In this document: positions 441 through 64,000 of the stretch, piece after piece | Numbering within the stretch: the stretch's first letter is position 1 | How the letters are laid out: each line of letters starts with the position of its first letter | Notes under the pieces: model-generated | What the model was told of the DNA's origin: nothing | Databases searched by the model: none | What the model saw: the letters and a program-made list of their open reading frames with translations, nothing else | Assembly: GCA_030390025.1 (NCBI GenBank) | Contig: JASTWF010000495.1 | Coordinates: 248,001-312,000 of the forward strand | Length of the DNA: 64,000 bases | Source: Squalus acanthias | Taxonomy: Eukaryota | Reading direction: 5' to 3' | Made by a program: the position numbers and the translations under genes

Positions 441-628
441 CTGCAGCACCAGCGGACCCACACCAGAGAGAAGCCATTCGAAGGCACAGTGTGTGGAAGC
501 CGTTTAGCCAGTCGGGTCACTTTACAGCACACCAGCGAACTCACCCCGGGGTGAAACGATTCAGACGCACAGTGTGTGCGAAGGGGTTTAATTCATCCTG
601 CTGTTTGTTGCGACATCAGCAAACCACC
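441..628 (+). pseudogene. C2H2 (Krueppel-type) zinc-finger gene remnant
   Basis: LQHQRTHTREKPF..VC / KPFSQSGHFTAHQRTHPGVKRFRRTVCAKGFN...HQQT with a frameshift and lost cysteines; degraded TGEKPF linkers. Confidence 0.85.
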
Positions 629-974
629 CTGTGGAGACCACTTGAGTTGTACTGTGTGTGAAATGAAATTTGACACATCTGGTTAGCTGCCACACCCGTG
701 AATTGACACCAGAGGGAAACTGTTGAATGGATTGGATTCACAACTGTCCCTGTTTCACTGAGATTCACAGAGTGAAACCAACTAAAAACACTTGTTTCAG
801 TAATTTGATGTTTAGAATGGTCTCCTCTGCTGCAGTAACTGTGCCAATGAAGTTGATTATATCACTGCTCACAATCTCACGGCACAATATCGCACTTTGT
901 CCCTTTCACTTTCTCTGAAGTACAGATTAAGTGTCGGCTAGAAACATTGTATTTCCACAAGGGAGAGTGTAATT

Positions 975-1640
975 ATAGGAACAGGAGTCGGCCACTTAGC
1001 CCCTCGAGCTGTTCCGCCATTCAGTGAGATCCTGGCTGATCTGTGACCTAACTCCATATACCCGCCTTTGCCCATATCCCTTAATACATTTAGTTAACAA
1101 AAATATGTCAATATCAGATTTAAATTTAACAATTGATCTCGAATTAATAGCCGTTTGCGGAAGAGAGTTCCAAACTTCTACCACCCTTTGTGTGTAGAAT
1201 TATTTCCTAACTTCGCTCCTGAAAGGCCTCCCCAAGCAGTGGAAATGGTTTCTCTCTATCTACCCTATCAGCAACGCTCCCTCAGTCCCGACAGCCTGGG
1301 ACCGGTTTCTTCAGTGATAAATTTTGCGTGTGCGAAACTGAGACTGGGCCGCGCACCCAAAAAATTAGGCGGAACATTGCCTCTCGCTTCCCCTTAATAT
1401 CTTGAAAACTTCGATCAAATCACCCCTGAACCTTCTAAATTCCAGAAATACAACCCGGGTTTGTGTAATCTCTCCTCGTAATTTAACCCTTGGAGACCAG
1501 GAATCATTCTGGTCAATCTACGCTGCACTCCCTCCAAGGCCAATATATCCTTCCTAAGGTGTGGTGCCCAGAACTGCTCCCAGAACCCCAGGTGTGGTCT
1601 AACCAGGGCTCTGTATAGCTGCAGCATAACTTCTACCCTA
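975..1640 (-). mobile_element. CR1 LINE 3' fragment containing a ~108-bp MITE-like insertion (1272-1379)
   Basis: LYRALVRPHL..QFWAPHLRKDILALE..QRR; insertion ends CAACGCTCC...GGAACATTG form imperfect inverted repeats. Confidence 0.85.
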
Positions 1641-3064
1641 ATAATAGATTCAAAGAAATTCTAGCACATCGAGAGGCCACCCCGCCCATTGTACCCTTCT
1701 AGCTCAGTAACTGGGACCCTTTCACTCCAATCCCGGATTCCTCTTTTCCAAATGTCGATATTACAAGTTTGGGTCTGCTGTTAGATATTCTCTCGAGTAC
1801 AGCGGTGCTCATCTCTCCTGTAAGCGGTCAGCGCCTGACGTTTAGGACTGTGTCCTCGCTGCCCGATGTCTAATTATACAATAGTGTAGCCCCCAAGTGT
1901 AACATTAACACCCCCTTGTGGTCTGAACCAGATATCCGAGTCTTTTCTAGATGCCTCTCCAATCTTCCCACGGAGGTGCCGCAAAAACACTTGGGAAAAT
2001 GCAAATCGATAAACTGCATTGGTTCACAGTGAGTGAACATACAGAGCAACAGTTCCAATGGGACTCCCTTCAGTCAGTACAATGTGCCCACGTATTAACA
2101 TCGAATAACCAACATGCTATGCTGCCCTACAGCAGTGGGTGTCTTGCTTGAGTTAAACCAAATTACTTAATTCCTAACCCTCAGAGTCTCAGTAAGAGCC
2201 CTCATAGTTCATAGAATCATAGAATGTTACAGCAGAGAAGGAGGCCATTCGGCCCATCGTGCCTGTGCCGGCTCTGTGCAAGAGCTATTCATAGTCCCAC
2301 TCCCTGGCTCTGTCTCCATAGCCCAGCAAATCTTTCCCTTCAAGTATTGATCCAATTCCCTTTTGAAAGTTACTGTTGAATCTGTTTCCACCGCCCTTTC
2401 AGGCAGCACATTCCAGATCACAACAACTCGCTGCCTATTTTTTTCCCCGTGTCGCCTCTAGTTTTCTCTTTTTAAAAACCTGACTGCCAACCTGTGGGTC
2501 TTTGTACTCTTGTCTCCTGTCCATCAGGAAGTTGATGCTTGGTTCGTGATTCTTCCTCATGTCCAGGGGTTAGTTCGAGAGCAGGAAGCTCACAGCAGGT
2601 CAGTCAGCATCGATGGAGAGATCAGAAAAGTTAATGTTTTGGGGCTCCTGAAATGGCAGCTTTTCCGTTCTCTCCACCCCACTGATGCTGAGTGACAGGT
2701 TGTGTTTCCAGCATTTTCTGTTTCTTGTTTGAAGCTGCTGAATCAAGGCTGCTGCTGTGCCTCTCTCCATCCCTCCCCATTTTGAAACCAGCTTCATGTA
2801 AAGCTCCACAGGAAGGGCCATTCCAACACGGCATGGTGGGAATGTTTCTTTGGAGTCCCCAAGTTGAGATCGTGACTCTCCTCTTGTTCCCAATCATCAT
2901 GGGCAACAGATTTAATGTCTGACTCTTTAATGCACATTCTGTAAATGCCTATAGCCTTTCTTTTAAAATCTGTGTGGATTCACTTTCTTTTAGAATCCAG
3001 CACTTAAAACACAACTCTTTTCCAATTCTATCTGTGGAAAAATCGTCAAAAAGTGTTAAAATGG

Positions 3065-4030
3065 GACTTCGGAACAGGCCATTCGGCCCCTTGTGCCTGT
3101 TCCACCATTCTGTGAGATCATGGTTGATCTGGACCTCAACTCCATTTACCCGCCTTTTCACCATCTCCCCTGATATCCTTACCCAGAAACATCTGTCAAT
3201 CTCAGTCTTGAAAATTTCAATTGACCCCGAGCATCCACAGCCTTTTGGGGAGAGAGTTCCAGATTTCCACGACCCTTTGTGTGAAAAAGTTCTTCCTGAT
3301 TTCACTCCTGAATGGCCAAGCTGTAATTTTAAGATTTTGCTCCTTGTTTTGGTTTCTCTGTATCTACCCGAGCGAATCCTATTATCATTTTTAACACTTT
3401 GGTTGGATCCCCCCTCAAGCTTCTAAACTCAAGCGAATACAAACCGAGTTTCTGTAACCTGTCCCCATAATTGAACCCTTTAAATTCTGGTGAATCTGCG
3501 CTGCCCCCCCTCCAAAGCCCAGATATCCTTCCTGAGGTGCGGTGCCCAGAATCCATCCTATTCCCCGATCAGTGCTTTTATAATCTCTGCCCCAACAATC
3601 ACCCCTTGCAGAGCATTCCGTATCTTTGGAGAGGCTGGAGAAGCTGGGATTGTTATCATTAGAGCAGAGAAGGTTAAGGGGAGATTTGATAGAAGTGTTC
3701 AAAATGCTGAGGGGTTTTGAGAGTAAATAAGGAGAAACTGTTTCCACTGACAGGAGGGTCAGTAACCAGAGCTCACAGATTTCAGATAATTGGCAAAAGA
3801 ACCAGGGCGGAGATGAGAAGACAGTTTTTTAGGCAGAGAATTGTTGTGATCTGGAACGCACTGCCTGAAAGGTTGGTGGAAGCAGATTCAATAGTAACTT
3901 TCAAAAGGGATTCGGATAAATACTTGAAAAGGATAAACTTTCAGGGGAGTGGGACTAATTGGAGAGCTCTTTCAAAGAGCCAACACTGACACGATGGGCC
4001 GAATGGCCTCCTTCAGTGCGCCATGATCTC
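3065..4030. mobile_element. Two CR1 3' fragments in opposite orientations
   Basis: CR1 ORF2 C-terminal motifs (LGLYSLEFR; FFRQRIVVIWNALP) on opposite strands. Another CR1 tail lies at 2215-2460 (minus). Confidence 0.8.
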
Positions 4031-6710
4031 AATGAAAAGTTTTCTCCAACTTTCCCCTCCTTGTTCCCCTGCCAAACCTGAGCCGATGCACTTCTATTAC
4101 AGCCTCACCGACCAATGTAACAATCCCTTGCCACCAACCCCCACAGAACTGTATAAATCGCTGAAGATCCCCAGTAAGAAAAGCCCCAATTCTTTCAGCC
4201 ATTCTTTATAAAGTGTTCAGCTTGGATTCACAATCTTCATCTAGCCCTGTCTGTCCTGATCTCTCTCTCTCTTGAGCTGATTTTTCGGTTGTATTCCAGT
4301 ATAACCGGAACAACTTGTCCAAAATCATAAAGGATAGCTGATGGAGTTTTATATTTTATATCCATATTCTTTCCATCCAGATTATGCCATTGGCAATACC
4401 GGTCTCGGATGGTTATATTATTTAATAGATCGACAGGGATGCATCCCTGTATTGTTTGTTCTAATGATCTGCTCAAGATGTTTACTATCTGTTGTTGATT
4501 CACTAGGTGTACACGGTCTCGAGGCAGTCAATTGCTCACATCTACTTGTTTCTCAGTTATAACTATCAGGAAAGGATGAGCAGGCTGGGCCTTTTTTTTC
4601 TTCAAAAGATAAGGCTGAGGGATGACCGAATAGAGGTGTTTAAAATTCTGAAATTTTTGATAGATTAGACAGAGAGAATGTTTTCACTTGTGGGGAAGAG
4701 CAAAACTAGAGGCCATCAATATAAGATAGTTACCAAGAAATCAAATAGGGAATTCAGAAGAAACTGCTTCACCCAGAGAGTGGTGAGAATGTGGAACTTG
4801 CTACTGCGAGGAGTAGTTGAGGGGAATAGTATAGACGCATTTAAGGGGAAGCTAGATAATGATATGAGGGAGAAGGGAATAGAGGGTTCTGCTGATAGAG
4901 TTAGATGAGGAAGGATGGGAGGAGGCTCGAGTGGAGCATCAATGCCGGCATGGCCTGGTTGGGCCGAATGGCCTGTTTCTGTGCTGTATATTCTATGTAA
5001 TTCTATTCTGGCCAGAGTTTTTAAGTCCACAATAGTCTCGATTTCTTCCAGAGCCAGTCCTATGATGTCCTGTGCCACCTCCCGACTGTCCGTATAGCCT
5101 CTCTGGGGATATTTTTAAATTTGTCTTCCTGAATTTCCAAATCCTTAACGGATGGGATATTCCAACCAGTTGCTGTACCGAATCCTCCCATTCCCAACTT
5201 GTCTCATAGGGACCTTTTCCTTCCCTTCTCACTCTCTTCCTCCTCTGGATCATTCTGTGGTTCCTTACAGTCCAGGGCATGTTTTTTATATCCGTGCAGT
5301 AGATTGGCAAATTCACAGTCCGGGATCAAGGTTTGTTCTTGGATCCTGAATTCAAAGAATCCTTGCTTGAATTCTTGAAATTGATTGTTGTTTACTTCTT
5401 CTTCCCCAGTTCTCCTGTCACAGTACCTCGAAGTCTGAGCTTCCCTTCATACTGCAGTATCTTGTCCTATGATCAAACTTTGGCAGACCGGTCCAATTGG
5501 TCTGGACTATCGGTGCCCATTTTTGTAAATCAATGACCAGTGGTTTTACCACATATTATACATTCTGAATTATAATACATAATACTCCTGGGTCAGGACT
5601 CCCCAATCAGTGGGCCAAATTTTATTTCTGGTCAGTTGCTTACCACTTTCGCATTGTCTCTTTGATAAGGTTTTGTTTGGTCCACATGGTCCCACTTACC
5701 CTCCATTTGTCATTTGGTGTCCTTAGTTCTAACCGTTTGGACCCAGTGTCTCCATTACTGTGAACGGTGCTCTCCACTTGGGATACAGTGAGTGGGAAGG
5801 ATTACCGAACCATTTTAACAGAACCTTATCACCAGCTAGGTACAAATAGTCCATATGTGTAAGTTCCTGGTTTCCTTTTATTGTATCAGCAGCCCTTCCC
5901 AATTGGTGAGCCATCCACCCATTCATTTCCCTGATGCCCGCCTTCAGATGAATGACAGACTCGGTTTGATCAACTACTCCCTTCAGAGAGTCCGACAACC
6001 CCTCGTACATGAGGTGCTCTGGGCGTCTCGTACTTCGCCCTGTCATTAGGGTCTCAATCCCAGAGCGCAGCAAGGAGTGGATCTGCTGGCCAGCGAGGCT
6101 AATGGCAACTTCACATCCCAATCCCTGCCATTTATTGCTCCAAATTTTCTGGAAATTATTTATAAAGTGCAGTTTGCTCTTTCCACTGTCCCTGGTGACT
6201 GTGTGAATTGTGGAACTGGTTTTATGTCCAACAAATTCATGCATTGAGCCATGACCTCTTTTGGCGAACCTCACTGAGTGGTTTATTGTCCTACCAGAGC
6301 TTTAGCAATGGGGATAGCTTGCACCCATTTCGAAAACTAATCCGCTCCAAGTAAAATATATTTGTTTGCTATTGCGGTTGAAGTTTAAGGCTCTATCCAA
6401 TCGATTTGTAATGAGCACCATGGTCCCTGTTTTAGTCGGGTCACAGGGTGGGTGGGGTTCCTTTATTTTGTAGTGATCATATTTACATGGGCGCGTGTGA
6501 GACATTGGTTCCAGCGTATTGTTCCATTCATTGCCATTTCTGGCCAACAGCCCAAGTCTCTCACCCACTGTAAGGTTTTCACTGCTGTTCAGCTGTTGAG
6601 GCATTGTGAGCTGTGTCCAGTAATATGGCCCAACTCTCTCAACCCTCCTTCGCTATTGGTAAATGGATTGTATGGAACGCAGTTTCTTGTTCTAAGGTCA
6701 ACTTATTGAA
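4030..6710 (-). mobile_element. Fragmented Gypsy-like LTR retroelement (integrase C-terminus plus env-like region), interrupted by CR1 at ~4560-5000
   Basis: GRDWDVKLPLASLASRST...LMTGR and GDKVLLK...LYPKWRAPFTVME (GPF/Y-like) at 5730-6135; basic IQRRKRVRR at 5221-5250. No LTRs identified. Duplicate at ~53660-56325. Confidence 0.6.
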
Positions 6711-6711
6711 A

Positions 6712-8740
6712 TCATAAAATGATACAACATAGAAGGAGGCCATTGGGCCCATCGTGCCTGTGCCGGCTCTTTGGTCGAGCTATCCAGTTAATCCCACTGC
6801 CCTGCTCTTTCCCTATAGCCCTGCACATTTTCCCCTTCAAGTATTTATCCAATTCTCTTTTGAAAATTACTATTGAATCTGCTTCCACCGCCCTTTCAGG
6901 CAGTGCAGTCCAGATCACAACAACTCGCTGCTTAAAAAAACTGTCTTCTCATCTCCCCCCTGGTTCTTTTGCCAATTATCTGAAATCTGTTTGCTCTGGT
7001 TACTGACCCTCCTGTCAGTGGAAGCAGTTTCTCCTTATTTACTCTCACACCTCGATCAAATCTCCACTTAACCTTTTCTGCTCTAAGGAGAACAACCCCA
7101 GCTTCTCCAGTCTATCCCCGTAACTGAAGTCCCTCATCCCTGGTACCATTCCAGTAAATCTCTTCTGCCCCCTCTCCTAGGCCTTGACATCCTTCCTATA
7201 GTGTGGTGTATTGAACACAATACTCCAGCTGGGGCCTAACCTGTCTTTATAAAGGTTGAGCATAACTTCTTGCTTTTACATTCTATTCCTCTATTAATAA
7301 AGCCAAGGATCCCATCTGCTTTTTAACAGCCTTCTCAACTTGTCCTGCTCCCTTCAAAGATTTGTGTCCATGCACCTCATGTCTCTCTGTTCCTGCACCC
7401 CCTTTAATTTTGTACCATTTAGTTCATATTGCCTCTTCCTACCAAAATGTATCAACTCACACTTCTCTCTGTTAAATTTCATCTGCCATGTGTCTGTCCA
7501 TTTCACCAGTCTGTGTGTGCTCCTGAAGTCTGTTACTATCCTCCTCATTGTTCACTACATTTGAGTTTCGTGTCATCTGCAAACTTTGAAATTATCCCCT
7601 GTTTTGCCAAGTGTGAGGTGATACATTTTGGTAGGAAGAATGAGGAGAGACCATACACACTAAACAGTACAATTTTAAATGGAGTGCAAGAACAGAGAGA
7701 CCTGGGGGTACTTGCGCATAAATCTTTGAAGGTGGCAGGACAGGTTAACACAGCAGTTAATAAACCACATGGGATCCTGGGCTTCATAAATAGAGGCAGA
7801 GAGTACAAAAGCCAGGAAGTTCTGCCAAACCTGTATAAAACGCTAGTTCGGCCCCAGCTTGTGTCCAATTCTGAGCACCACACTTTTGGAAGGACATGAC
7901 GGCTTTGGAGACGGTGGAGAGATTTACTATAATGGTTCCAGGGATGAGGGATTACAGTTCCGGGGACAGACTAGAGAAGCTGGGTTGTTCTCCTTGGAGC
8001 AGAGAAGGCTAAGAGGAGATTTGACAGGTGTTTAAAAGCATAAAGGATTTAGATGGAGTAAATAAAGAGAAACAGTGCTGAGAGGTTGTTTCCCCTGGCT
8101 GGCGAGTCTAGAACTAGGGGGAATAGTCTCAGGATAAGGGGTCGGCCATTTAAGACTGAGATGAGGAGGAATTTCTTCACTCAGAGGGTTGTGAATCTTT
8201 GCAATTCTCTACTCCAATGGGCTGTGGATGCTGAGTCATTGAGTGTATTTAAGGCTGAGATAGATTTTTTGGACTCTAGGGGAATGAAGGGATCTGGGGA
8301 TCTGGCGGGGAAGTGGAGTTGAGATCGAAGATCAGCCATGATCTCATTGAATGGCGGAGCAGGCTCGAGGGGCCGTATGACCGACACCTGCTCCTAATTC
8401 TTATGTTCTTAGTTTCCAATGGCTGAAGGCTCGATCACGAGAGGGCACAGATTTAAGGTGATTGGCAAAAGAACCAGAGGCGACATGAGCAAAAACATTT
8501 TTACGTAACGTGTGGTTAGGATTTGGATTGCTCTGCCTGATAGGGTGGTGGATACAGATTCATTGTAGCCTTCAAAAGGGAACTGGATACATACTTGAGG
8601 GGAGAGAATTGCAGGGATATGGGGTACGAGCGGGGCAGTGGGACTAACTCGATTGCTCTTTGAAAGAGCCAGTGCAGACTCGATGGACCGAATGGCCTCC
8701 TTCTGTGATGTACTACTGAGATTCGATTCTATGAAACAAC
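6712..8740. mobile_element. Cluster of nested and inverted CR1 fragments
   Basis: [20 protein letters not shown] and FFTQRVVNLWNSL motifs; minus strand 6712-7600, plus strand 7605-8740. Confidence 0.88.
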
Positions 8741-9482
8741 CCCTCTGACAGTGCAGCGCTCCCTCCGTACTGCCCCTCTGACAGTGCAGCACTCCCTCAG
8801 TACTGCCCCTCTGACAGTGCAGCACTCCCTCAGTACTGCCCCTCTGACAGTGCAGCACCCCCTCAGTACAGCCCCTCTGACAGTGCAGCACCCCCTCAGT
8901 GTTGCCCCTCTGACAGTGCAGCACTCCCTCAGTACTGCCCCTCTGACAGTGCAGCACCCCCTCAGTACTGCCCCTCTGACAGTGCAGCACCCCCTCAGTA
9001 CTGCCCCTCTGACAGTGCAGCACCCCCTCAGTGTTGCCCCTCTGACAGTGCAGCACTCCCTCAGTACTGCCCCTCTGACAGTGCAGCACCCCCTCAGTAC
9101 TGCCCCTCTGACAGTGCAGCACTCCCTCAGTACTGCCCCTCTGACAGTGCAGCACTCCCTCAGTGTTGCCCCTCTGACAGTGCAGCACTCCCTCAGTACT
9201 GCCCCTCTGACAGTGCAGCACCCCCTCAGTACTGCCCCTCTGACAGTGCAGCACTCCCTCAGTACTGCCCCTCTGACAGTGCAGCACTCCCTCAGTGTTG
9301 CCCCTCTGACAGTGCAGCACTCCCTCAGTGTTGCCCCTCTGACAGTGCAGCACTCCCTCAGTACTGCCCCTCCGACAGTGCAGCGCTCCCTCAGTACTGC
9401 CCCTCCGACAGTGCAGCGCTCCCTCAGTACTGCCCCTCCGACAGTGCAGATCTCCCTCCGTACTGCCCCTCCGATAGTGCCA
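8740..9482 (+). repeat. 33-bp minisatellite (CCCCTCTGACAGTGCAGCACTCCCTCAGTACTG)n, ~22 units
   Basis: Tandem repeat with an 11-aa period in the ORF track; only ~5-6 units at the paralogous site 58360-58540. Confidence 0.97.
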
Positions 9483-11283
9483 ATAAAATGTCCACGAATG
9501 GCCTACTCCTGCTCCTATCTTCTATGTTTCTATGTTTAAGACGCTCCTTAAAACCCACCTCTTCGACCAAGCTTTTAGTCTCTGTCCTAAAATCTCCTGA
9601 TGTGGTTCGGTATACGCTCCTGTGAAGAACCTTGAGGCGTTTTACTACGTTAAAGGAGCTAAATAAATCCAAGTTGTTGCTGAGCTGCCTGGATTTGCCC
9701 AGTGCTGGGAGACAGACCTGGAATCGCTTCTCTATTTACTGTACAGCTGACTCTGTGCAACCCTCAGATTTGATGTACTTGTGCTGCACAATGTTTAACC
9801 AGGCTCCACAATTCAGGGTTTGCAGCACTGTCCCCAGATTTAGAAAGCATTCATCGAAAGATCAAATAAAGGAGTAATTGTGCTGGGGATTGAAAAACGT
9901 CTCGTACAAAGCTGCTGTAAAAGGGAGGTGAGAATGTGGGACTGTGTCATGGAGTTCGTGTATCTGGGAAGTAGAAGGCGGCCTGATGCGGGTTACAGTT
10001 GTTAGGTGTGGGGTTATAGAAAGGTCCTAAGTGCGATATATATGGCGCCGACTGAGTTTCGCAGAATGTGCAAAGACTCGAATCCATTGCACAAGGGAGC
10101 TGCTGCCCCTGGATCCGCAGTGACCCCATCGTGAACTGTCTCCAGGACCCCATTTGCTCTTTGCTCTCTGACCCTGAGGAGCAAACAAAAGCTCGAGGCG
10201 TGTGTCAGGACAGCAGTAATATCAGCAACCCGAGTTTTAAACATGGCCGGAAATTCTCTGCAGTATTAAATTGCATTGCTTAATTTTAGATCCTAGAATT
10301 GTCTTTCTGTATGAACCTAATTCTAACCCAGGAGACGATTTCCTCTGTGCATTGTGCTCAAGGAGATCCCAAACCCGCTCATAAGTGCGGATTTACCATC
10401 TCACTAGTGTGAATTTTCCTCTCAGTTGCCAAATATCTATTTCAACATAAATAAAAGTGAGCTGGTATATTTTAGTTTGAGGAATAAGGAGGCCACATAC
10501 TGCTTGCAAAATAAGAGTCTAAATGGGGTAGAGCAGCAAAAAGATCTAAAGTAAACACTCACAGATCAGTAAAAGTAGCAGCGCAAGTTAACAAAGCCAC
10601 ACAAAGTGCAAACAAAGCACTGGGATTCATTTCTAGAGGAATAGAATTCTAAAGCAGAGAGGTTATGTTAGACTTGTATTGAACCTTGGTTAGATCACAT
10701 TTAGAGTTCGGTGCACAGTTATGGTTCATATTATAAAAAGGAAGTAGAGGCATTGGAGAAAGGACAAAACAGATTCAAAAGGATGATCCCAGACCGGAGA
10801 GGTTATAACTCTCAGGAATGTCTGAGCAGACTGGGGCTCCTTTCTCTAGAAAGACTGAGAGGAGCCCTTTTAGAGGTCTTTAAAATTCTGAAGGGATTCG
10901 ATAGAGCAGACATGGAGAAGATGCTTCCAGCAGCAGATCTGGTGGGACAAGACCCCCAGTGTCGGAGACAGGATAAAACAGGAAGCTTCAACAATAATTG
11001 TAAAGGTGAGGAACTCTACTGAGAATCCCATCAGTCCAGGGTTTTGCTGAGGTGAGAGTCTAACCAGCTACTGGGAGCTGTTCAACATCTGCCATCAGGC
11101 TCCGTCTTTGATGCAGCCAGTTGATCAGAGCTTAACTTGTATGTAAACTTTGGCTGTGCTTGGTGAACCAATTTAGAGAGAGCTTTTAGACTGTATCCAC
11201 CCCATGCTGTACCTGACGTGGGAGTGTTTGATGGGACAGTGTAGAGGGAGCTATCTCATGATTGCCCATGATGTCCTCTCCAA

Positions 11284-12360
11284 TTATTTCTCTGATGGTC
11301 CCAACACTTGATAACCCCGATGATCGCTCCTCTTATGGCTTTTGACGCCTGTACCTGTTACAGGGAATAGACTGGTTTCAGAAAACAGAGGTTGCTTAAC
11401 CCCTGCCTTATCCCAACACCATTCCCTCAAATTGATTCTCACTGTCGAAGCTGTTGGGAGGCACGGTGCCTGATATAAAGAGAGGGGAGACTTGGAAGTG
11501 TATAAAGCAAGAGTTGGACATGGGGGCCATTGAATAGTGGGTCCTCATATTTGGAGAATGGGAGGGAGAATTCGTAAGGGGTAATTTTGGGAGTCTGTGC
11601 TCCCTGCCTGGAGTCTCCGTACATGGGAGCGGGTTCGGAGACAGGACTGATTGTACAACCTGCGTTCATGCCCAGTGAGACTGTACATCAGGAGCAGGGT
11701 GTGGTCATGTGACCTGGTAATACATGGATTGGGAGGGGCTTGGGCTGCTTTGTGACATCGTTCCTGGCTGCTGTTGTGATTGGCTTGTGGCTCCTTTGTG
11801 ATGTCACCTGGAGACAAGTTTACGCCCCTGGTTACACATCAGCGGGATGTCACTGTGGGAGGAGCTGGAGTCGGCAGCAGTCTGGCGAGTGAGTTTAGTC
11901 CCTGTAAATAGGGGCAAGGAAAGAAAAGAACAATTTAATAGTAAAGTCAGTAATTCAACTAAATGTCATTAATTGTAAATATATTGAACTGATCATAGTC
12001 ACAAAAACAATCCCACTGTATCCCAGTTACAGATTGTAAAATTAATCTTTTTTATATTACCAGTTTCTTGGAGTGAGCAATATCTCTGGAAGGTGGAGAG
12101 AGAGAAGTCGAATCATCACCACACTAACTGGGACTGGAGAAATGTCACTGGGTTCACAGAGCAGATCTGGTGGGACAAGACCTCCAGTGTCGATGACAGG
12201 ATAAAACGGGAAGCTTCAACAATGATTGGAAAGGTAAGGAACTCGACTGAGAATCCCATTAGTTCAGGATTCAGAGCTGAGAGTCTAACCAGATACTGGG
12301 AGCTGTGCAACATCTGTCATAAGGCTTGGACTTTGATGCGGCATTTGACCAGAGCTTACC
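11284..12360 (-). pseudogene. Two-exon remnant of an unidentified multi-copy gene
   Basis: Donor CTG|GTAATA at 12060 and a strong acceptor TTCTTTTCTTTCCTTGCCCCTATTTACAG at 11902 define a ~160-bp intron; the mostly open frame ends ...NYPLRILPPILQI*. Homologous pieces at 90-440, 10925-11140, 18525-19180, 19440-19800 and 61715-63150. Confidence 0.45.
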
Positions 12361-12825
12361 TCGTACATAAACCTTACCCGCACCTCACCTGGGAGTGTTT
12401 GACACCTACATGTAGAGGGATTTTTATTCTGTATTGATCCCATGCTGTGCCTGAGCTGGTGCACTTCATTGGGTAGTGTAAAGGGAGCTGTACACTGCAC
12501 TGAACACATTCTGTATCTGAGTTGGCTGTGCTTGGTGAACTAATTTAGAGGGAGCTTTTCTCTATCTAACCCGTGCTCTGCGAGTGTTTGATGGGACAGT
12601 GTAGAGGGAGCTTCACTCTGTATTCAACCCGTGCTGTACCTGCCCTGGGACAGTTTGATGTGACTGTGTAGCGGGATCTTTTCACTCTATCTAACCCGTG
12701 CTCTACCTGATCTGAGAGTTATTGATGCAACAATGTAGAGGGAGCTTTACTCTTTATCTAACCCGTGCTGTACCTTCCCTGGGATTGTTTGATAGGACAG
12801 TGTTAGAGGGTTATTTACAGTATAC

Positions 12826-48490: not shown

Positions 48491-48512
48491 TCATCGAGCT
48501 GGACCGGTAACT

Positions 48513-48626: not shown

Positions 48627-48724
48627 AGGGGATCAGGTGCGCATGTGCGGTTCCAGTATACTGCACACATGTGCAGAAGGCCACAAAAATGTTCGTGCAC
48701 ATAATCACTTTGGCCAAACAATGG

Positions 48725-53100: not shown

Positions 53101-56100
53101 AACCCTTTAAATTCTGGTGAATCTGCGCTGCCCCCCCTCCAAAGCCCAGATATCCTTCCTGAGGTGCGGTGCCCAGAATCCATCCTATTCCCCGATCAGT
53201 GCTTTTATAATCTCTGCCCCAACAATCACCCCTTGCAGAGCATTCCGTATCTTTGGAGAGGCTGGAGAAGCTGGGATTGTTATCATTAGAGCAGAGAAGG
53301 TTAAGGGGAGATTTGATAGAAGTGTTCAAAATGCTGAGGGGTTTTGAGAGAGTAAATAAGGAGAAACTGTTTCCACTGACAGGAGGGTCAGTAACCAGAG
53401 CTCACAGATTTCAGATAATTGGCAAAAGAACCAGGGCGGAGATCAGAAGACAGTTTTTTACGCAGAGAATTGTTGTGATCTGGAATGCACTGCCTGAAAG
53501 GTTGGTGGAAAAAGATTTAATCGTAACTTTCAAAAGGGATTTGGATAAATACTTGAAAAGGATAAACTTTCAGGGGAGTGGGACTAATTGGAGAGCTCTT
53601 TCAAAGAGCCAACACTGACACGATGGGCCGAATGGCCTCCTTCAGTGCTCCATGATCTCAATGAAAAGTTTTCTCCAACTTTCCCCTCCTTGTTCCCCTG
53701 CCAAACCTGAGCCGATGCACTTCTATTACAGCCTCACCGACTAATGTAACAATCCCTTGCCACCAACCCCCACAGAACTGTATAAATCGCTGAGGTTCCC
53801 CAGTAAGAAAAGCCCCAATTCTTTCAGCCATTCTTTATACTGTGTTCAGCTTGGATTCACAATCTTCATCTAGCCCTGTGTGTCCTGATCTCTCTCTCTC
53901 TTGAGCTGATTTATTGGTTGTATTCCAGTATAACCGGAACAACCTGTCCAAAATCATAAAGGATAGCTGATGGAGTTTTATATTTTATATCTGTATTCTT
54001 TCCATCCAGATTATGCCATTGGCAATACCGGACTCGGATGGTTATATTATTTAATAGATCGACAGGGATGTATCCCTGTATTGTTTGTTCTAATGATCTG
54101 CTCCAGATGTTTACTATCTGTTGTTGATTCACTAGGTGTACACGGTCTCGAGGCAATCAATTGCTCACATCTACTTGTTTCTCAGTTATAACAATCAGGA
54201 AAGGATGAACAGGCTGGGCCTTTTTTTTCTTCAAAAGATGAGGCTGAGGGTTGACCGAATAGAGGTGTTTAAAATTCTGAAAGATTTTGATAGATTAGAC
54301 AGAGAGAGTGTTTTCACTTGTGGGGAAGAGCAAAACTAGAGGCCATCAATATAAGATAGTTACCAAGAAAGCAAATAGGGAATTCAGAAGAAACTGCTTC
54401 ACCCAGAGAGTGGTGAGAATGTGGAACTTGCTACTGCGAGGAGTAGTTGAGGGGAATAGTATAGACGCATTTAAGGGGAAGCTAGATCAGTATATGAGGG
54501 AGAAGGGAATAGAGGGTTCTGCTGATAGAGTTAGATGAGCAAGGCTGGGAGGAGGCTCGAGTGGAGCATCAATGCTGGCATGGCCTGGTTGGGCCGAATG
54601 CCCTGTTTCTGTGCTGTATATTCTATGTAATTCTATTCTGGCCAGAGTTTTTAAGTCCACAATAGTCTCGATTTCTTCCAGAGCCAGTCCTATGATGTCC
54701 TGCGCCACCTCCCGACTGTCCGTATAGCCTCTCTGGGGATATTTTTAAATTTGTCTTCCTGAATTTCCAAATCCTTAACTGATGGGGTATTCCAACCAGT
54801 TGCTGTACCGAATCCTCCCATTCCCAACTTGTCTCATAGGGACCTTTTCCTTCCCTTCTCACTCTCTTCCTCCTCTGGATCATTCTGTGGTTCCTTACAG
54901 TCCAGGGCATGTTTTTTATATCCGTGCAGTAGATTGGCAAATTCCCAGTCCGGGATCAAGGTTTGTTCTTGGATCCTGAATTCAAAGAATCCTTGCTTGA
55001 ATTCTTGAAATTGATTGTTGTTTACTTCTTCTTCCCCAGTTCTCCTGCCACAGTACCTCGAAGTCTGAGCTTCCCTTCATACTGCAGTATCTTGTCTTAT
55101 GATCAAACTTTGGCAGACCGGTCCAATTGGTCTGGACTATCGGTGCCCATTTTTGTAAATCAATGACCAGTGGTTTTACCACATATTATACATACTGAAT
55201 TATAATACATAATACTCCTGGGTCAGGACTCCCCAATCAGTGGGCCAAATTTTATTTCTGGTCAGTTGCTTACCACTTTCGCATTGTCTCTTTGATAAGG
55301 TTTTGTTTGGTCCACATGGTCCCACTTACCCTCCATTTGTCATTTGGTGTCCTTAGTTCTAACCGTTTGGACCCAATGTCTCCATTACTGTGAACGGTGC
55401 TCTCCACTTGGGATACAGTGAGTGGGAAGGATTACCGAACCATTTTAACAGAACCTTATCACCAGCTAGGTACAAATACTCCATATGTGTAAGTTCCTGG
55501 TTTCCTTTTATTGTATCAGCAGCCCTTCCCAATTGGTGGGCCATCCACCCATTCATTTCCCAGATGAATGACAGACTCGGTTTGATCAACTACTCCCTTC
55601 AGAGAGTCCGACAACCCCTCGTACATGAGGTGCTCTGGGCGTCTCGTACTTCGCCCCGTCATTAGGGTCTCAATCCCAGAGCGCAGCAAGGAGTGGATCT
55701 GCTGGCCAGCGAGGCTAATGGCAACTTCACATCCCAATCCCTGCCATTTATTGCTCCAAATTTTCTGGAAATTATTTATAAAGTGCAGTTTGCTCTTTCC
55801 ACTGTCCCTGGTGACTGTGTAAATTGTGGAACTGGTTTTATGTCCAACAAATTCATGCATTGATCCATGACCTCTTTTGGCGAACCTCACTGAGTGGTTT
55901 ATTGTCCTACCAGAGCTTTAGCAATGGGGATAGCTTGCACCCATTTCGAAAACTAATCCGCTCCAAGTAAAATATATTTGTTTCCTATTGCGGTTGTAGT
56001 TTAAGGTTCTATCCAATCAATTTGTAATGAGCACCATGGTCCCTGTTTTAGTCGGGTCACAGGGTGGGTGGGGTTCCTTTATTTTGTAGTGATCATATTT

Positions 56101-59100
56101 ACATGGGCACGTGTGAGACATTGGTTCCAGCGTATTGTTCCATTCATTGCCATTTCTGGCCAACAGCCCAAGTCTCTCACCCACTGTAAGGTTTTCACTG
56201 CTGTTCAGCTGTTGAGGCATTGTGAGCTGTGTCCAGTAATATGGCCCAACTCTCTCAACCCTCCTTCGCTATTGGCAAATGGGTTGTATGGAACGCAGTT
56301 TCTTGTTCTACGGTCAACTTATTGAAATCATAAAATGATACAACATAGAAGGAGGCCATTGGGCCCATCGTGCCTGTGCCGGCTCTTTGGTCGAGCTATC
56401 CAGTTAATCCCACTCCCCTGCTCTTTCCCCATAGCCCTGCACATTTTCCCCTTCAAGTATTTATCCAATTCTCTTTTGAAAATTACTATTGAATCTGCTT
56501 CCACCGCCCTTTCAGGCAGTGCAGTCCAGATCACAATAACTCGCTGCATGAAAAAACTGTCTTCCCATCTCCCCCCTGGTTCTTTTGCCAATTATCTGAA
56601 ATCTGTTTGCTCTGGTTACTGACCCTCCTGTCAGTGGAAGCAGTTTCTCCTTATTTACTCTCACACCTCGATCAAATCTCCACTTAACCTTTTCTGCTCT
56701 AAGGAGAACAACCCCAGCTTCTCCAGTCTATCCCCGTAACTGAAGTCCCTCATCCCTGGTACCATTCCAGTAAATCTCTTCTGCCCCCTCTCCTAGGCCT
56801 TGACATCCTTCCTATAGTGTGGTGTATTGAACACAATACTCCAGCTGGGGCCTAACCTGTCTTTATAAAGGTTGAGCATAACTTCTTGCTTTTACATTCT
56901 ATTCCTCTATTAATAAAGCCAAGGATCCCATCTGCTTTTTAACAGCCTTCTCAACTTGTCCTGCCCCCTTCAAAGATTTGTGTCCATGCACCTCATGTCT
57001 CTCTGTTCCTGCACCCCCTTTAATTTTGTACCATTTAGTTCATATTGCCTCTTCCCACCAAAATGTATCAACTCACACTTCTCTCTGTTAAATTTCATCT
57101 GCCATGTGTCTGCCCATTTCACCAGTCTGTGTGTGCTCCTGAAGTCTGTTACTATCCTCCTCATTGTTCACTACATTTGAGTTTCGTGCCATCTGCAAAC
57201 TTTGAAATTATGCCCTGTATAGCCAAGTGTGAGGTGATACATTTTGGTAGGAAGAATGAGGAGAGACCATACACACTAAACAGTACAATTTTAAATGGAG
57301 TACAAGAACAGATAGACCTGGGGGTACTTGTGCACAAATCTTTGAAGGTGGCAGGACAGGTTAACACAGCAGTTAATAAACCACATGGGATCCTGGGCCT
57401 CATAAATAGAGGCAGAGAGTACAAAACCAGGAAGTTCTGCCAAACCTATACAAAACGCTAGTTCGGACTCAGCTTGTGTCCAATTCTGAGCACCACACTT
57501 TTGGAAGGACATGACGGCTTTGGAGAGGGTGGAGAGATTTACTATAATGGTTCCAGGGATGAGGGATTACAGTTCCGGGGACAGACTGGAGAAGCTGGGT
57601 TGTTCTCCTTGGGTCAGAGAAGGCTAAGAGGAGATTTGACAGAGGTGTTTAAAAGCATAAAGGATTTAGATGGTGTAAATAAAGAGAAACAGTGCTGAGA
57701 GGTTGTTTCCCCTGGCTGGCGAGTCTAGAACTAGGGGGAATAGTCTCAGGATAAGGGGTCGGCCATTTAAGACTGAGATGAGGAGGAATTTCTTCACTCA
57801 GAGGGTTGTGAATCTTTGGAATTCTCTACCCCAATGGGCTGTGGATGCTGAGTCATTGAGTGTATTTAAGGCTGAGATAGATTTTTTGGACTCTAGGGGA
57901 ATGAAGGGATCTGGGGATCCGGCGGGGAAGTGGAGTTGAGATTGAAGATCAGCCATGATCTCATTGAATGGCGGAGCAGGCTCGAGGGGCCGTATGGCCG
58001 ACACCTGCTCCTAATTCTTATGTTCTTAGTTTCCAATGGCTGAAGGCTCGATCACGAGAGGGCACAGATTTAAGGTGATTGGCAAAAGAACCAGAGGCGA
58101 CATGAACAAAAACATTTTTACATAACGTGTGGTTAGGATTTGGATTGCTCTGCCTGATAGGGTGGTGGATACAGATTTATTGTAGCCTTCAAAAGGGAAC
58201 TGGATAAATCCTTGAGGAGAAAAAATTGCAGGGATATGGGGTGCGAGCGGGGCAGTGGGACTAACTCGATTGCTCTTTCAAAGAGCCAGTGCAGACTCGA
58301 TGGACCGAATGGCCTCCTTCTGTGATGTTCTACTCTGTGATTCTATTCTATGATACAGCCCGTCTGACAGTGCAGCGCTCCCTCAATACTGCCCCTCTGA
58401 CAGTGCAGCACTCCCTCAGTACTGCCCCTCCGACAGTGCAGCACTCCCTCAGTACTGCCCCTCTGACAGTGCAGCACTCCCTCAGTACTACCTCGCTGAC
58501 AGTGCAGCACTCCCTCAGTACTGCCCCTCCGACAGTGCAATAAAATGTCCACGTTTACTTACAGTATTGAACCTGTGGATTTCAATCTCTTCCTTTCACT
58601 TTGGGTACACTGTAAATTTTAATAAATATTTATTTTCTGCCACTTTTTTCTCCTCCTCGTGTTGTAGTATCAAATGTTGTTTGAAAGTCCCTGCAGCAAG
58701 GGGTCCTGAGAGACGGGAACTATCTGGGTGGGACTGCACTCGCCTGGTTCCATTCTTATCTATCCAGTCGTAGACAGAAAATCACCTGCAATGGCTCCTC
58801 TTCCTGCTCCTGCACCGTTACTTCTGGAGTCTCCCAAGGATCTATCCTTGGCCTCCTTCTATTTCTCATCTACATGCTGCCCCTCGGCAACATCATCCCA
58901 AAACACATCAAGTTCCACATGTACGCTGACGACACCCAGCTTTACCTCACCACCACCTCTCCCAACCCCTCCACAGTCTCTAAATTGTCAGACTGTCCGA
59001 CATCCAGTATTGGATGAGCAGAAATTTCCTCCAACTAAATATTGTGAAGACCAAAGACATTGACTTCGGGCCCCGTCACAAACTCCGTTCGCTCGCCACC

Positions 59101-62100
59101 GACTCCATCCCTCTCCCCGGCAACTGTCTGAGGCTGAACCAGACCGTTCACAACCCTGGTGACCTATTTGACCCCGAGATGAGCTTCCGACCACACATCC
59201 ACACCATCACTAAGACGGCCTACTCCCAGCTCCGTAACATCGCCCGACTCCACCCCGCCTCATCTCATCTGCTGCTGAAACCCTCATCCGTGCCTTGTTA
59301 TCTCTAGACTTGACTATTCCAAGGCTCTCCTTGCCGATCTCCCATCTTCCACCCCACATAATCTTGAGCTCATCCAAAACTCTGATGTGCACCAAATCCC
59401 GTTCACCCATCATCCCTGTGCTTGCTGACCTACATTGGCTCCCGGTCCAGCAATCCCTCAATTTTAAAATTCTCAACCTTGTTTTCAAATCCCTCCATGA
59501 ACTCGCCCCTCCCAGCCCTACAACATAGAAACATAGAAGATAGGAGCAGGAGTAGGCCATTCGGCCCCTCAAGCCTGCTCCGCCATTCAATGCAATCATG
59601 GCTGATCATCCAAATTCTGTACCCTGTCCCTGCTTTCTCCCCATATCCCTTGATCCACTTAGCCTTCAGAAATATATCTAACTCCTCCTTGAATATATTT
59701 AATGAATTGGACTCAACTGTCTTCTGTGGTAGAGAATTCCACAGGTTCACCACTCTCTGGGTGAAGAAATTCCTCCTCATCTCAGTCCTAAATGGCTTAC
59801 CCCTTATCCTTCGACTGTGATCCCTGGTTCTGGACTCCCCGCCATCGGGAACATCCTTCCTGCATCTAGTCTGTCTAGTCCTGTGCGAATTTTATAAGTT
59901 TCAATGAGATCCCCTCTCATTCTTCTAAACTTTAGCGAATACAAGCCCAATCGACCCAATCTCTCTCCATACGTCATTCCTGCCATCCCAGGTATCAGTC
60001 TGGTGAATCTTCGCTGCACTCTCTCCATGGCAAGAACATCCTTCCTCAGATAAGGCGACCAAAACTGCACACAATACTGAAGGTGTGGTCTCACCAAGTC
60101 CCTGTACAACTGCAGCAAGACATCCTTGCTCCTGTACTCGAATCCTCTCGCTATGAAGGCCAACAACCCTCCGAGATCTCTGCACTCCTCCAATTCTGGC
60201 CTCTTGAGCTTCCCCGATTTTAATCGCTCCACCATTGGCAGCCGTGCCTTCAGCTGCCAAGGTCCTAAGCTCTGGAATTCGCTCCCTAAACCTCTCCGCC
60301 TCTCTACCTCTCTCTCCTCCTTTAAGACGCTCCTTAAAACCCGCCTCTTCGACCAAGCTTTTGGTCATCTGTCCTAAAATCTCCTGATGTGGCTCGGTAT
60401 ACGCTCCTGTGAAGAACCTTGAGGCGTTTTACTATGTTAAAGGAGCTAAATAAATCCAAGTTGTTGCTGAGCTGCCTGGATTTGCCCAGTGCTGGGAGAC
60501 AGACCTGGAATCGCTTCTCTATTTACTGTACAGCTGACTCTCTGCAACCCTCAGATTTGATGGACTTGTGCTGCACAATGTTTAACCAGGCTCCACAATT
60601 CAGGGTTTGCAGCACTGTCCCCAGATTTAGAAAGCATTCATCGAAAGATCAAATAAAGGGGTAATTGTGCTGGGGATTGAAAAACGTCTCGTACAAAGCT
60701 GCTGTAAAAGGGAGGTGAGAATGTGGGACTGTGTCATGGAGTTTGTGTATCTGGGAAGTAGAAGGCGGCCTGATGCGGGTTACAGTTGTTAGGTGTGGGG
60801 TTATAGAAAGGTCCTAAGTGCGATATATATGGCGCCGACTGAGAGTTTCGCAGAATGTGCAAAGACTCGAATCCATTGCACAAGGGAGCTGCTGCCCCTG
60901 GATCCGCAGTGACCCCATCGTGAACTGTCTCCGGGACCCCATTTGCTCTTTGCTCTCTGACCCTGAGGAGCAAACAAAAGCTCGAGGCGTGTGTCAGGAC
61001 AGCAGTAATATCAGCAACCCGAGTTTTAAACATGGCCGGAAATTCTCTGCAATATTAAATTGCATTGCTTAATTTTAGATCCTAGAATTGTCTTTCTGTA
61101 TGAACCTAATTCTAACCCAGGAGACGATTTCCTCTGTGCATTGTGCTCAAGGAGATCCCAAACCCGCTCATAAGTGCGGATTTACCATCTCACTAGTGTG
61201 AATTTTCCTCTCGGTTGCCAAATATCTATTTCAATATAAATAAAAGTGAGCTGGTATATTTTAGTTTGAGGAATCAGGAGGACACATACTGCTTGGAAAA
61301 TAAGAATCTAAATGGGGTAGAGCAGCAAAAAGATCTAAAGTGCACACTCACAGATCAGTAAAAGTAGCAGCGCAAGTTAACAAAGCCACACAAAGTGCAA
61401 ACAAAGCACTGGGATTCATTTCTAGAGGAATAGAATTCAAAAGCAGAGAGGTTATGTTAGACTTGTATTGAACCTTGGTTAGATTACATTTAGCGTTCGG
61501 TGCACAGTTATGGTTCATATTATAAAAAGGAAATAGAGGCACTGGAGAAAGTACAAAACAGATTCAAAAGGATGATCCCAGACCGGAGAGGTTATAACTC
61601 TCAGGAATGACTGAGCAGACTGGGGCTCTTTTCTCTAGAAAGACTGAGAGGAGCCCTTTTAGAATTCTTTAAAATTCTGAAGGGATTCGATAGAGCAGAC
61701 ATGGAGAAGATGCTTCCAGCAGCAGATCTGGTGGGACAAGACCCCCAGTGTCGGAGACAGGATAAAACAGGAAGCTTCAACAATAATTGTAAATGTGAGG
61801 AACTCTACTGAGAATCCCATCAGTCCAGGGTTTTGCTGAGGTGAGAGTCTAACCAGCTACTGGGAGCTGTTCAACATCTGCCATCAGGCTCCGCCTTTGA
61901 TGCAGCCAGTTGACCGAAGCTTAACTTGTATGTAAACTTTGGCTGTGCTTGGTGAACCAATTTAGAGAGAGCTTTTCGACTGTATCCAACCCATGCTGTA
62001 CCTGACCTGGGAGTCTTTGATGGGACAGTGTAGAGGGAGCTATCTCATGATTGCCCATGATGTCCTCTCCAATTATTGCTCTGATGGTCCCAACACTTGA

Positions 62101-64000
62101 TAACCCTGATGATCGCTCCTCTTACGGCTTTTGACGCCTGTACCTGTTACAGGGAATAGACTGGTTTCAGAAAACAGAGGTTGCTTAAACCCTGCCTTAT
62201 CCCAACACCATTCTCTCAAATTGATTCTCACTGCCGAAGCTGTTGGGAGGCACGGTGCCTGATATAAAGAGAGGGGAGACTTGGAAGTGTATAAAGCAAG
62301 AGGTGAACATGGCGGCCATTGAATAGTGGGTCCTCATATTCGAAGGATGGGAGGGAGAATTCGTAAGGGGTCATTTTGGGAGTCTGTTCTCCCTGCCTGG
62401 AGTCTCAGTACATGGGAGCGGGGTCGGAGACGGGACTGATTGTACAACCTGCGATCATGCCCAGTGAGACTGTACATCAGTAGCAGGGTGTGGTCATGTG
62501 ACCTGGTAATACATGGACTGGGAGGGGCTTGGGCTGCTTTGTGACATCGTTCCTGGCTGCTGTTGTGATTGTCTTGTGGCTCCTTTGTGATGTCACCTGG
62601 AGACAGGTTTACGCCCCTGGTTACAGATCAGCAAGATGTCACTGTGGGAGGAGCTGGAGTCGGCAGCAGTCTGGCGAGTGAGTTTAGTCCCTGTAAATAG
62701 GGGAAGGAAAGAAAAGAACAATTTAACAGTAAAGTAAGTAATTCAACCAAATGCCATTAATTGTAAATATATTGAACTGATCATAGTCACAAAAACAGTC
62801 CCACTGTATTCCAGTTACAGATTGTAAAATTAATAATCATTTTTATATTACCAGTTTCTTGAGTGAGCAATATCTCTGGAAGGTGGAGAGAGAGAAGTCG
62901 AATCATCACCACACTAACTGGAACTGGAGAAATGTCACTGGGTTCACAGAGCAGATCTGGTGGGACAAGACCTTCAGTGTCGATGACAGGATAAAACGGG
63001 AAGCTTCAACAATGATTGGAAAGGTAAGGAACTCTACTGAGAATCCCATTAGTTCAGGATTCAGAGCTGAGAGTCTAACCAGATACTGGGAGCTGTTCAA
63101 CATCTGTCATAAGGCTTGGACTTTGATGCGGCATTTGACCGGAGCTTACCTCGTACATAAACCTTGCCCGCACCTCACCTGGGAGTGTTTGACACCTACA
63201 TGTAGAGGGATTTTTATTCTGTATTGATCCCATGCTGTGCCTGAGCTGGTGTGCTTCATTGGGTAGTGTAAAGGGAGCTGTACACTGCACTGAACACATT
63301 CTGTATCTGAGTTGGCTGTTCTTGGTGAACTAATTTAGAGGGAGCTTTACTCTGTATCTAACCCGTGCTCTGCGACTGTTTGATGGGACAGTGTAGAGGG
63401 AGCTTCACTCTGTATTCAACCCGTGCTGTACCTGCCCTGGAACAGTTTGATGGGACTGTGTAGTGGGATCTTTTCACTCTATCTAACCCGTGCTCTACCT
63501 GACCTGAGAGTTATTGATGCAACGATGTAGAGGGAGCTTTACTCTGCATCTAACCCGTGCTGTACCTGACCTGGGAGTGTTTGATGGGAAAGTGTAGATT
63601 GAGCTTCACTCTTTATCTAACCCTTGCTGTACCTGCCCTGGGACTGTTTGATAGGAAAGTGTAGAGGGAGCCTTACTCTATATCTAACCCGTGCTGTACC
63701 TTCCCTGGGACTGTTTGATAGGACAGTGTTAGAGGGTTATTTACACTATACCTAACCCGTGCTATAGCTGACCTGGGAGTATTTGATAGGACTGTATAGA
63801 GGGAGCTTTACTCTTTATCTAACCCGTGCTGTACCTGCCCTGGGATTGTTTGATGGGACTGTGTACAGGGAACCTTACACTGTTCTAACCCTTGCTATAC
63901 CTGACCTGAGAATTTTTGATGGGACAGTGTAGACAGAAATCTACGCCGTATCTAACCTGTGCTATACCTGCACTGGGACTGTATGGTGGGACAGTGTAGA
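50192..64000 (+). repeat. Segmental duplication, copy 2 (runs off the window end)
   Basis: Begins at GATTCAGACGCACAG (= 558), fused to a LINE fragment; offset 49.6-50.1 kb because of indels. Confidence 0.97.
58735..60440 (+). mobile_element. L2-like LINE with a nested antisense CR1 (59522-60162)
   Basis: YADDTQLY and LADLHWLPVQQ motifs interrupted by a CR1 3' end; mostly deleted in duplication copy 1. Confidence 0.88.

Follow-up and report, generated by a model that had tools for sequence, protein, structure and literature searches.

The class I gene

The window, i.e. the whole 64-kb stretch of Squalus acanthias DNA analysed here, contains one MHC class I gene lying between two copies of a block of about 13 kb that are ~98% identical. 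The gene has seven exons, 343 codons and 1032 nt with no internal stop, and GT-AG borders in 6/6 introns; the class I heavy-chain exon set, from leader to cytoplasmic, lies in one open frame, the last exon being reached across an assembly gap.

34495..34532, minus strand: X1/X2/Y-box-like promoter module, ~375 bp upstream of the start codon
34072..34120, minus strand: exon 1, leader (tblastn, 16/17 identical to a horn shark leader)
31773..32033, minus strand: exon 2, alpha-1, with Y59S and N86I (Pfam MHC_I)
30983..31255, minus strand: exon 3, alpha-2, with T143I (Pfam MHC_I)
28277..28540, minus strand: exon 4, alpha-3 (C1-set, E 2.9e-17)
26834..26938, minus strand: exon 5, transmembrane
26313..26345, minus strand: exon 6, cytoplasmic
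25959..26159, no strand: assembly gap of 201 N in a CT-rich stretch of intron 6
25756..25802, minus strand: exon 7, cytoplasmic tail and stop, beyond the gap

The boxes of the module at 34495-34532 are those we take to be X1, X2 and Y; the search pattern, derived from the site itself and hence leaving its likeness to known boxes unaddressed, gave one match against none in 100 shuffles. The CT-rich stretch around the gap is bounded by a 14-bp direct repeat (26228-26241 and 25825-25838); a shared insertion site at this gap would also be expected from a close paralogue or from the other haplotype. An earlier note on this DNA had described the gene as intact between the copies, which holds for its reading frame and splice sites and is to be qualified by the 201-N gap in its last intron, of which that note makes no mention.

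No class I exon was found a second time in the window: apart from the gene itself, tblastn with five class I proteins gave matches of E 0.49 or worse, blastn of four gene segments returned only the gene's own satellites, and no dispersed match within 13907-50191 reaches 94% over 100 bp. Protein searches (33, 65 and 3 candidates) brought up no near-identical paralogue, an uninformative result, as the class I gene itself was absent from them too; the best identities obtained were 74% for alpha-1 and 81% for alpha-2. Scans of the window for tRNAs and Rfam families gave no hit.

Lineage and residues of the class I chain

In the phylogeny, for which 31 of the 40 fetched proteins were used and which does not contain UCA, UDA, UEA, UFA and UGA, the gene falls into a 100/100 clade with nurse shark UBA and horn shark UBA, the split separating 26 rows from 6. 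Within UBA, the galeomorph subgroup (80/91, not starred) does not include it, and its partner in a smaller tree is Pristiophorus (95/97), a pairing suggestive of a squalomorph shark. Judged by its sequence, the gene is a non-classical class Ib gene of the UBA lineage, and its assignment in the earlier note to a non-classical, multi-copy family is thereby borne out. The reference chains of this lineage are Gici-UBA AAC60347 (the same as O19479) and horn shark O19480; compared by eye in the displayed parts of alpha-1 to alpha-3, P0029 is identical to Gcirratum_UBA_AAC60347 of the PMC10751288 supplement. Full-length identity of the window gene goes no higher than 77%.

The chain shares its domains with classical UAA (the nurse shark 6LUP chain and five classical-type relatives), 6LUP being the best PDB match for both alpha-1 (E 4.5e-27) and alpha-2 (E 3e-32), and it keeps both alpha-2 cysteines as well as 6/8 peptide-terminus anchors, including K146 and W147. 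The two anchors lost, Y59S and T143I, are also lost in 25/25 relatives of the UBA clade, whereas the classical-type rows keep T143 (6/6) and, where a residue is present, Y59 and N86 (5/5), none of which occurs in the window gene. In alpha-3, identity is 64-71 of 87-89 residues with UBA relatives, as against 42-58 of 89 with classical-type chains. A classical UAA identity is ruled out by the tree placement together with the lost anchors. Of the published neighbours, neither c4 and rxrb, which flank UBA, nor psmb8/9 and tap1/2, to which the highly polymorphic and ubiquitously expressed classical UAA is linked, were recognised in the window.

The heavy chain has Ile at position 86 and no N-x-S/T anywhere, i.e. 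no N-glycosylation site, while Asn occupies this position in 30/30 relatives with a residue there in the larger tree, one further row (P0028) in the smaller tree having Gln. The N86 site is near-universal, yet not required for class I membership. According to PMC6859791, the N86 glycan of human class I favours display at the cell surface as well as binding to tapasin, and chains that lack glycosylation prefer TAPBPR. The missing site may mark a specialised molecule or the early decay of a redundant copy; it is a more unusual point than the duplication unit discussed below.

The duplicated flank

558..13906, plus strand: copy 1 of the duplication (self-BLAST and block-wise alignment)
50192..64000, plus strand: copy 2, cut by the window end (self-BLAST and block-wise alignment)
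12820..13652, plus strand: LINE insertion of 833 bp in copy 1 only; its C-terminal frame is open and its 3' end carries a microsatellite tail
9495..9536, minus strand: 42-bp inverted templated piece in copy 1, in place of 58554-60320 (42/42 identical to the reverse complement of 59522-59563)

Self-BLAST resolves the repeat into three collinear blocks on the same strand, namely 558-8920 versus 50192-58539 (97.3% over 8378 columns), 9535-12803 versus 60321-63595 (96.9%) and 13653-13906 versus 63747-64000 (97.2%), with copy 2 extending past the window edge. The identity in the mid-to-high nineties estimated in the earlier note is confirmed; as for the collinear recurrence described there, the recurrence itself, its strand and its order stand, whilst continuity does not, the copies being broken into three blocks by indels and differing in satellite length. 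Block-wise alignment with satellites excluded gives 249 mismatches in 11,429 columns (2.18%; K2P 0.022), made up of 144 transitions and 105 transversions, and the offset grows from 49,634 at the start to 50,094 at the window end. With 11,429 columns at 97.8%, and an alignment that crosses many unrelated repeat and unique segments, the repeat has the size and identity of a segmental duplication in the usual sense (more than 1 kb, more than 90%, beyond shared transposons). Copy 1 comprises zinc-finger remnants, LINE fragments, a degenerate LTR-element-like fragment and satellites; the idea that the whole block is a single large transposon is ruled out, since it is patched together from unrelated repeats and remnants and self-BLAST shows no terminal repeats. 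Counted in bins of 400 columns, the mismatches are over-dispersed (their variance was reached in 1 of 2000 shuffles) and the longest identical run is 399 bp; the over-dispersion is compatible with patchy gene conversion or with rate variation.

Forty mismatches are covered by an older zinc-finger copy serving as outgroup (see below), 16 being derived in copy 1, 22 in copy 2 and 2 unresolved. There are four structural differences: an inserted LINE, the loss of 1.8 kb and unequal lengths of two satellites, with a 33-bp array counting 22.5 units in one copy and 5.6 in the other. This deletion concerns the counterpart of 58554-60320 (1.77 kb), kept in copy 2 and missing from copy 1, where the 42-bp inverted piece shows 2-bp microhomology at both ends. 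The LINE inserted at 12820-13652, presumably a CR1, has no target-site duplication. After the duplication, the copies would have decayed separately, through point changes in both and satellite length changes, copy 1 also undergoing the LINE insertion and the deletion with templated inversion.

Owing to the 201-N gap in intron 6, the two copies lie on different contigs and their 50-kb spacing is nominal. This gap, placed between the copies and within a microsatellite, is what speaks for an assembly artefact, in which the copies would be allelic, or a tandem array would have had its contigs misordered at the gap, so that exon 7 might come from another gene than exons 1-6. MHC haplotypes can, moreover, be unusually divergent. 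Against this stand the differing left flanks and the four structural differences, together with the 14-bp repeat across the gap and the in-phase exons 6 and 7, which point to one insertion site for both contig ends. Furthermore, a divergence of 2.2% is ~11 times the genome-wide diversity of a different species, the epaulette shark (pi 0.002, PMC10587355). The divergence and the structural differences argue for paralogy of the copies, and an artefact appears improbable.

At the epaulette shark pedigree rate, a crude cross-species scaling, 2.2% corresponds to 8-79 million generations. The duplication is probably not young for a shark, and the epithet "young" used in the earlier note is doubtful. 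A per-year shark substitution rate was sought in the literature and none was found, for which reason no age in years is given.

The junction and its LINE

402..658, plus strand: frameshifted C2H2 zinc-finger remnant containing the left breakpoint, 558 (Pfam zf-C2H2)
18511..20491, plus strand: older zinc-finger module copy, the outgroup (~91% in ungapped columns)
49728..50192, minus strand: 5'-truncated LINE, its 5' end joined to copy 2 (labelled from a sister copy)

Copy 2 begins at 50191/50192, where a LINE passes into a zinc-finger remnant with 1-bp microhomology. The abrupt start inside a zinc finger fused to a LINE, reported in the earlier note, is found at the LINE 5' end, at 50192, although the finger is a frameshifted remnant rather than a gene: the stretch 422-658 matches zf-C2H2 at E 1.7e-4, under the curated cut-off, while an older sister finger at 19810-19911 reaches E 9.4e-6, over it. 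Since the older paralogue at 19801-20491 aligns uninterrupted across position 558, the left edge of copy 1 shows the ancestral state, and 50191/50192 is the derived side. The left flanks of the two copies differ, positions 1-557 having no match in 36000-50191. Given the ancestral state at 558 and the lack of a match to 1-557 left of the LINE, there is a single derived junction, tail to head, as a tandem duplication of 558-50191 would leave; two rival explanations predict it too.

One of these is a larger or differently bounded duplication, the present junction having arisen by a later deletion, or by insertion of the LINE with loss of target site. The junction LINE has no Pfam match of its own, a sister copy running into an RVT_1 frame at 41788-42171. 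Measured on the longest copy, the junction LINE has its 5' end at 241, and two sisters have theirs at 223 and 275, as would be the case for an ordinary truncated insertion. Such a typical length for its family suits this rival, as does the deletion at 9495-9536 of copy 1, showing that post-duplication microhomology deletions occur here. No remnant of 1-557, however, is present left of the LINE. In addition, the LINE differs from its three sisters by 9.5-10.2%, and 16 of 264 columns carry changes private to it, which exceeds the 1.1% that each copy has accumulated since the duplication; this divergence leans towards a LINE that predates the junction. Part of it may reflect a different master element, and the LINE may be younger than apparent, given that its 13 changed codons comprise 6 synonymous and 7 non-synonymous ones. 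A larger duplication is, all in all, quite improbable.

The second rival confines the event to the zinc-finger/transposon block (14-25 kb), inserted beside or into a LINE upstream of the class I gene, itself a bystander. It draws on the fact that every duplicated segment seen is gene-free, and on the behaviour of the zinc-finger module, which is also copied locally in 1-2 kb pieces (91% and ~79%) with no adjoining class I remnant; the older partial copies at 10932-11607 and 18511-20491 are likewise devoid of class I exons, and an insertion would give the same junction anatomy. It requires, on the other hand, a second junction outside the window, and direct orientation at 50 kb in a multi-copy family is more simply explained by one tandem event. 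I regard this explanation as possible but unlikely.

A probable tandem duplication at a UBA locus

The duplicated flank is likely the trace of the ordinary tandem duplication behind the multi-copy UBA family. In its specific form, a single head-to-tail duplication of a ~50-kb unit (558-50191) that would include the class I gene, the proposal has about an even chance of being right; inclusion of the gene is pure extrapolation, as nothing in 13907-50191 is seen twice within the window. A break or template switch would have joined the tail of the unit (the LINE) to its head (the dead zinc finger) through the 1-bp microhomology, presumably not via recombination between long repeats. Unequal crossing-over, by which UBA copy number usually changes under birth-and-death evolution, would then be able to act on the resulting repeat. 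A same-strand UBA paralogue is predicted at about 75.9-84.2 kb in window coordinates, ~98% identical in introns and flanks; a neighbouring class I gene at 50 kb would by itself prove little, shark-cluster class Ib genes being spaced 31-98 kb anyway (sawfish table).

If confirmed, the unit would place a breakpoint on the map of a shark class Ib cluster and supply a marker of its copy number, useful but expected. A bolder version, rather improbable, is that a 50-kb duplicon, cut between a LINE and a dead zinc finger, is the working unit of UBA expansion in this shark, amplifying an expressed N-glycan-free class Ib chain that loads its ligand outside the calreticulin/tapasin route; if true, it would provide the first base-level anatomy of a class Ib birth event in cartilaginous fish, and with it a class I molecule that naturally carries no glycan.

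Comparison with other class I clusters

PMC10751288 (section 9) describes UBA in elasmobranchs as a multi-copy cluster with c4 and rxrb on its flanks, and its function as unknown. Along the same line, UBA paralogues cluster by species or order in the tree, and the Mustelus gene model P0001 consists of two whole UBA-like genes fused head to tail. A search of largely open-access literature turned up no article describing how large the UBA duplication units are or where they break. Elasmobranch "MHC-Ia-like" genes near UAA are surrounded by zinc-finger genes (PMC10751288, section 5). The present locus likewise has a class I gene amid multiple C2H2 zinc-finger copies; there, however, the genes are Ia-like, whereas here the gene is UBA by the tree and the fingers are frameshifted remnants.

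In the HLA alpha block, macaque Mamu-B and mouse H2-Q/T/M, class I genes are duplicated in units of tens of kb with shared transposon landmarks, followed by independent decay. The repeated gene is seen in those duplicons, while here only the flank is seen twice. To sum up, the locus is probably a further instance of the known birth-and-death duplication.

The duplicated block

Self-BLAST of the window confirms that the zinc-finger/transposon block at 558-13906 (copy 1) occurs again from 50192 to the window end (copy 2), as an earlier note had proposed, in three direct, collinear blocks:

558-8920 versus 50192-58539, block A
9535-12803 versus 60321-63595, block B
13653-13906 versus 63747-64000, block C

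In a block-wise alignment, satellites left out, 249 of 11,429 columns are mismatched (2.18%), and divergence outside CpG is 1.75%. The zinc-finger module also has an older copy (18511-20491, about 91%), which spans 40 of these mismatches and, used as outgroup, places the derived state in copy 1 at 16 and in copy 2 at 22 (2 unresolved); therefore both copies have aged. Besides mismatches, they differ structurally in four ways: the 33-bp array has 22.5 units in copy 1 versus 5.6 in copy 2; copy 1 has about two units fewer of the 67-bp array before the LINE insertion; that insertion, 833 bp long and with a frame that is open, occurs in copy 1 only; and the segment 58554-60320 of copy 2 is gone from copy 1, where a 42-bp inverted piece from within the lost segment (9495-9536) stands in place, with 2-bp microhomology at both ends. 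I read the deletion, templated inversion and microhomologies as the pattern left by template-switch repair.

No intact gene was found inside the duplicated material, which holds:

frameshifted C2H2 remnants
LINE pieces
about 4100-6710 and about 53750-56325, degenerate fragment resembling an LTR retroelement, interrupted by stops and by an inserted LINE

The last, with motifs that are presumably integrase-like, has no Pfam match in 5 frames. One 2-kb zinc-finger-remnant module is present in three or more generations (about 79%, 91%, 98%; 10932-12613, 18511-20491, 1-1229), the 67-bp satellite being tied to each. The window, shark DNA since all close matches of its class I exons are elasmobranch, is rich in LINE fragments and satellites, self-hits covering 23,375 bases of the 36,285 that separate the copies; tRNA and Rfam scans of it gave no match. 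Retroelement fragments assumed to be Penelope-like lie at:

21370-22014 (GIY-YIG match, E 2.5e-4, below the curated cut-off)
43398-44414
45795-47029

The junction and the age of the duplication

The alignment of the older paralogue (530-1229 versus 19801-20491) crosses position 558, hence copy 1 is ancestral at that edge. At 50192, where copy 2 starts, a minus-strand LINE adjoins it by its 5' end, the two sharing 1 bp of microhomology; a search of 36000-50191 for 1-557 gave no match. A single event, the tandem duplication of 558-50191, explains this derived junction, and a tandem unit containing the class I gene is, in my judgement, an even bet. Insertion of the block alone would give the same junction, and duplication of gene-free material only is unlikely; a later deletion would also give it, and a secondary junction at 50192 is quite improbable. 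Two observations on the junction LINE count against the tandem duplication. Its 5' end, at 241 versus 223 and 275 in its sisters (positions in the longest copy), lies where theirs do, as for an ordinary truncated insertion. Its age is uncertain, despite 16 private changes in 264 columns, because 13 of its codons have changed, 6 of them synonymously.

That the duplication is young, as the earlier note held, is not established: the pedigree-based rate for the epaulette shark, 7e-10 per site per generation (95% interval 1.4-14.1e-10; available part of PMC10587355), turns K = 0.022 into 16 million generations (8-79 million), an estimate that borrows its rate from another species and is not to be taken literally.

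Structure of the class I gene and the assembly gap

The class I gene between the copies has seven exons, encoding 343 codons with no stop, and GT-AG introns (6/6):

34495-34532, minus, X1/X2/Y-box-like promoter module, upstream of the leader exon
34120-34072, minus, exon 1
32033-31773, minus, exon 2
31255-30983, minus, exon 3
28540-28277, minus, exon 4
26938-26834, minus, exon 5
26345-26313, minus, exon 6
25959-26159, run of 201 N (assembly gap) in intron 6, the sole N run in the window
25802-25756, minus, exon 7
26442-30997, 32059-32410 and 33711-34071, intron minisatellites

The promoter module, whose box names are my assumption, suggests from its sequence that the gene may keep an MHC-type promoter. 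Five of the six introns have minisatellites of their own (periods 64, 46, 25/18, 45 and 27, 20), the G-rich 25-bp array of intron 3 beginning at the splice donor.

Lying within intron 6, the gap separates two contigs, the first with exon 7 and copy 1, the second with exons 1-6 and copy 2, and the copy spacing of 49.6-50.1 kb is therefore nominal. Copies on different contigs could point to an assembly artefact; yet the reading frame carries on from exon 6 into exon 7, and a direct repeat of 14 bp, like a target-site duplication, stands on both sides of the gap-bearing CT-rich stretch (25825-26241), which suggests that both contig ends share one insertion site and supports the scaffold join. The same site would be expected in a close paralogue or in the other haplotype, and a chimeric join is possible. 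The copies, however, differ about 11 times as much as average alleles do in another species, the epaulette shark (pi = 0.002; available part of PMC10587355), and an artefact is improbable.

Lineage and residues

Among proteins of solved structure, the closest is nurse shark UAA (6LUP). The alpha-1 to alpha-3 tree, built from the window gene and 31 of 40 fetched proteins (P0001, P0004, P0011, P0017, P0020, P0026, P0027, P0028 and P0035, being fused, isoform, partial or short models, were left out; UCA, UDA, UEA, UFA and UGA are absent), splits 26 rows, window gene included, from 6 classical-type rows at 100/100. Nurse shark UBA (O19479) falls in the clade of 26, and by eye is the same as Gcirratum_UBA_AAC60347 in the available part of the PMC10751288 supplement.

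Scored at eight class I anchors, the window gene keeps Y7, R84, K146, W147, Y159 and Y171 and has lost two (Y59S, T143I), as have 25/25 UBA-clade relatives; in that respect, then, it is like any other UBA member. Unlike those relatives, it has Ile at codon 86 of the mature chain (exon 31773-32033), with no N-x-S/T site in the whole protein; Asn stands there in 30/30 relatives with a residue at that column of the tree alignment, and Gln in one further row, P0028, of another alignment. The difference could be due to a specialised role, to early decay or to a base error.

Heptranchias P0036 combines classical-type anchors in alpha-1/alpha-2 with an alpha-3 nearer UBA (58/89 identical to the window gene, versus 42-51 in the remaining five classical-type rows), and is possibly an intermediate or exon-shuffled class I gene.

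Does the unit contain the gene?

One class I gene is present in the window and no second; the interval between the copies has 0 dispersed matches reaching 94% over 100 bp, and three protein searches turned up no near-identical relative, nor the window gene itself. The prior for a gene-containing unit is favourable: one Mustelus contig carries 11 database matches (some isoforms or fused models), the P0001 model is two whole genes fused head to tail, identity among six Mustelus paralogues is 67-86% in alpha-1/alpha-2 but 91-97% in alpha-3, and the available parts of PMC10751288 (section 9) and PMC12562908 present UBA as a multi-copy cluster. The wider interpretation of the earlier note stands in part: multi-copy UBA and the junction fit tandem duplication; the youth of the duplication is doubtful.

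In the sawfish table (PMC10751288 supplement, available part), the distances between class Ib starts are 31 and 39 kb in a cluster beside C4, here taken as UBA, and 64, 80 and 98 kb in another. Since such starts already lie 31-98 kb apart, a neighbouring class I gene alone is no test of the cassette; the telling criterion is about 98% identity in introns and flanks. Even if the earlier reading were true, it would be a case of birth-and-death duplication in a family already known as expanded.
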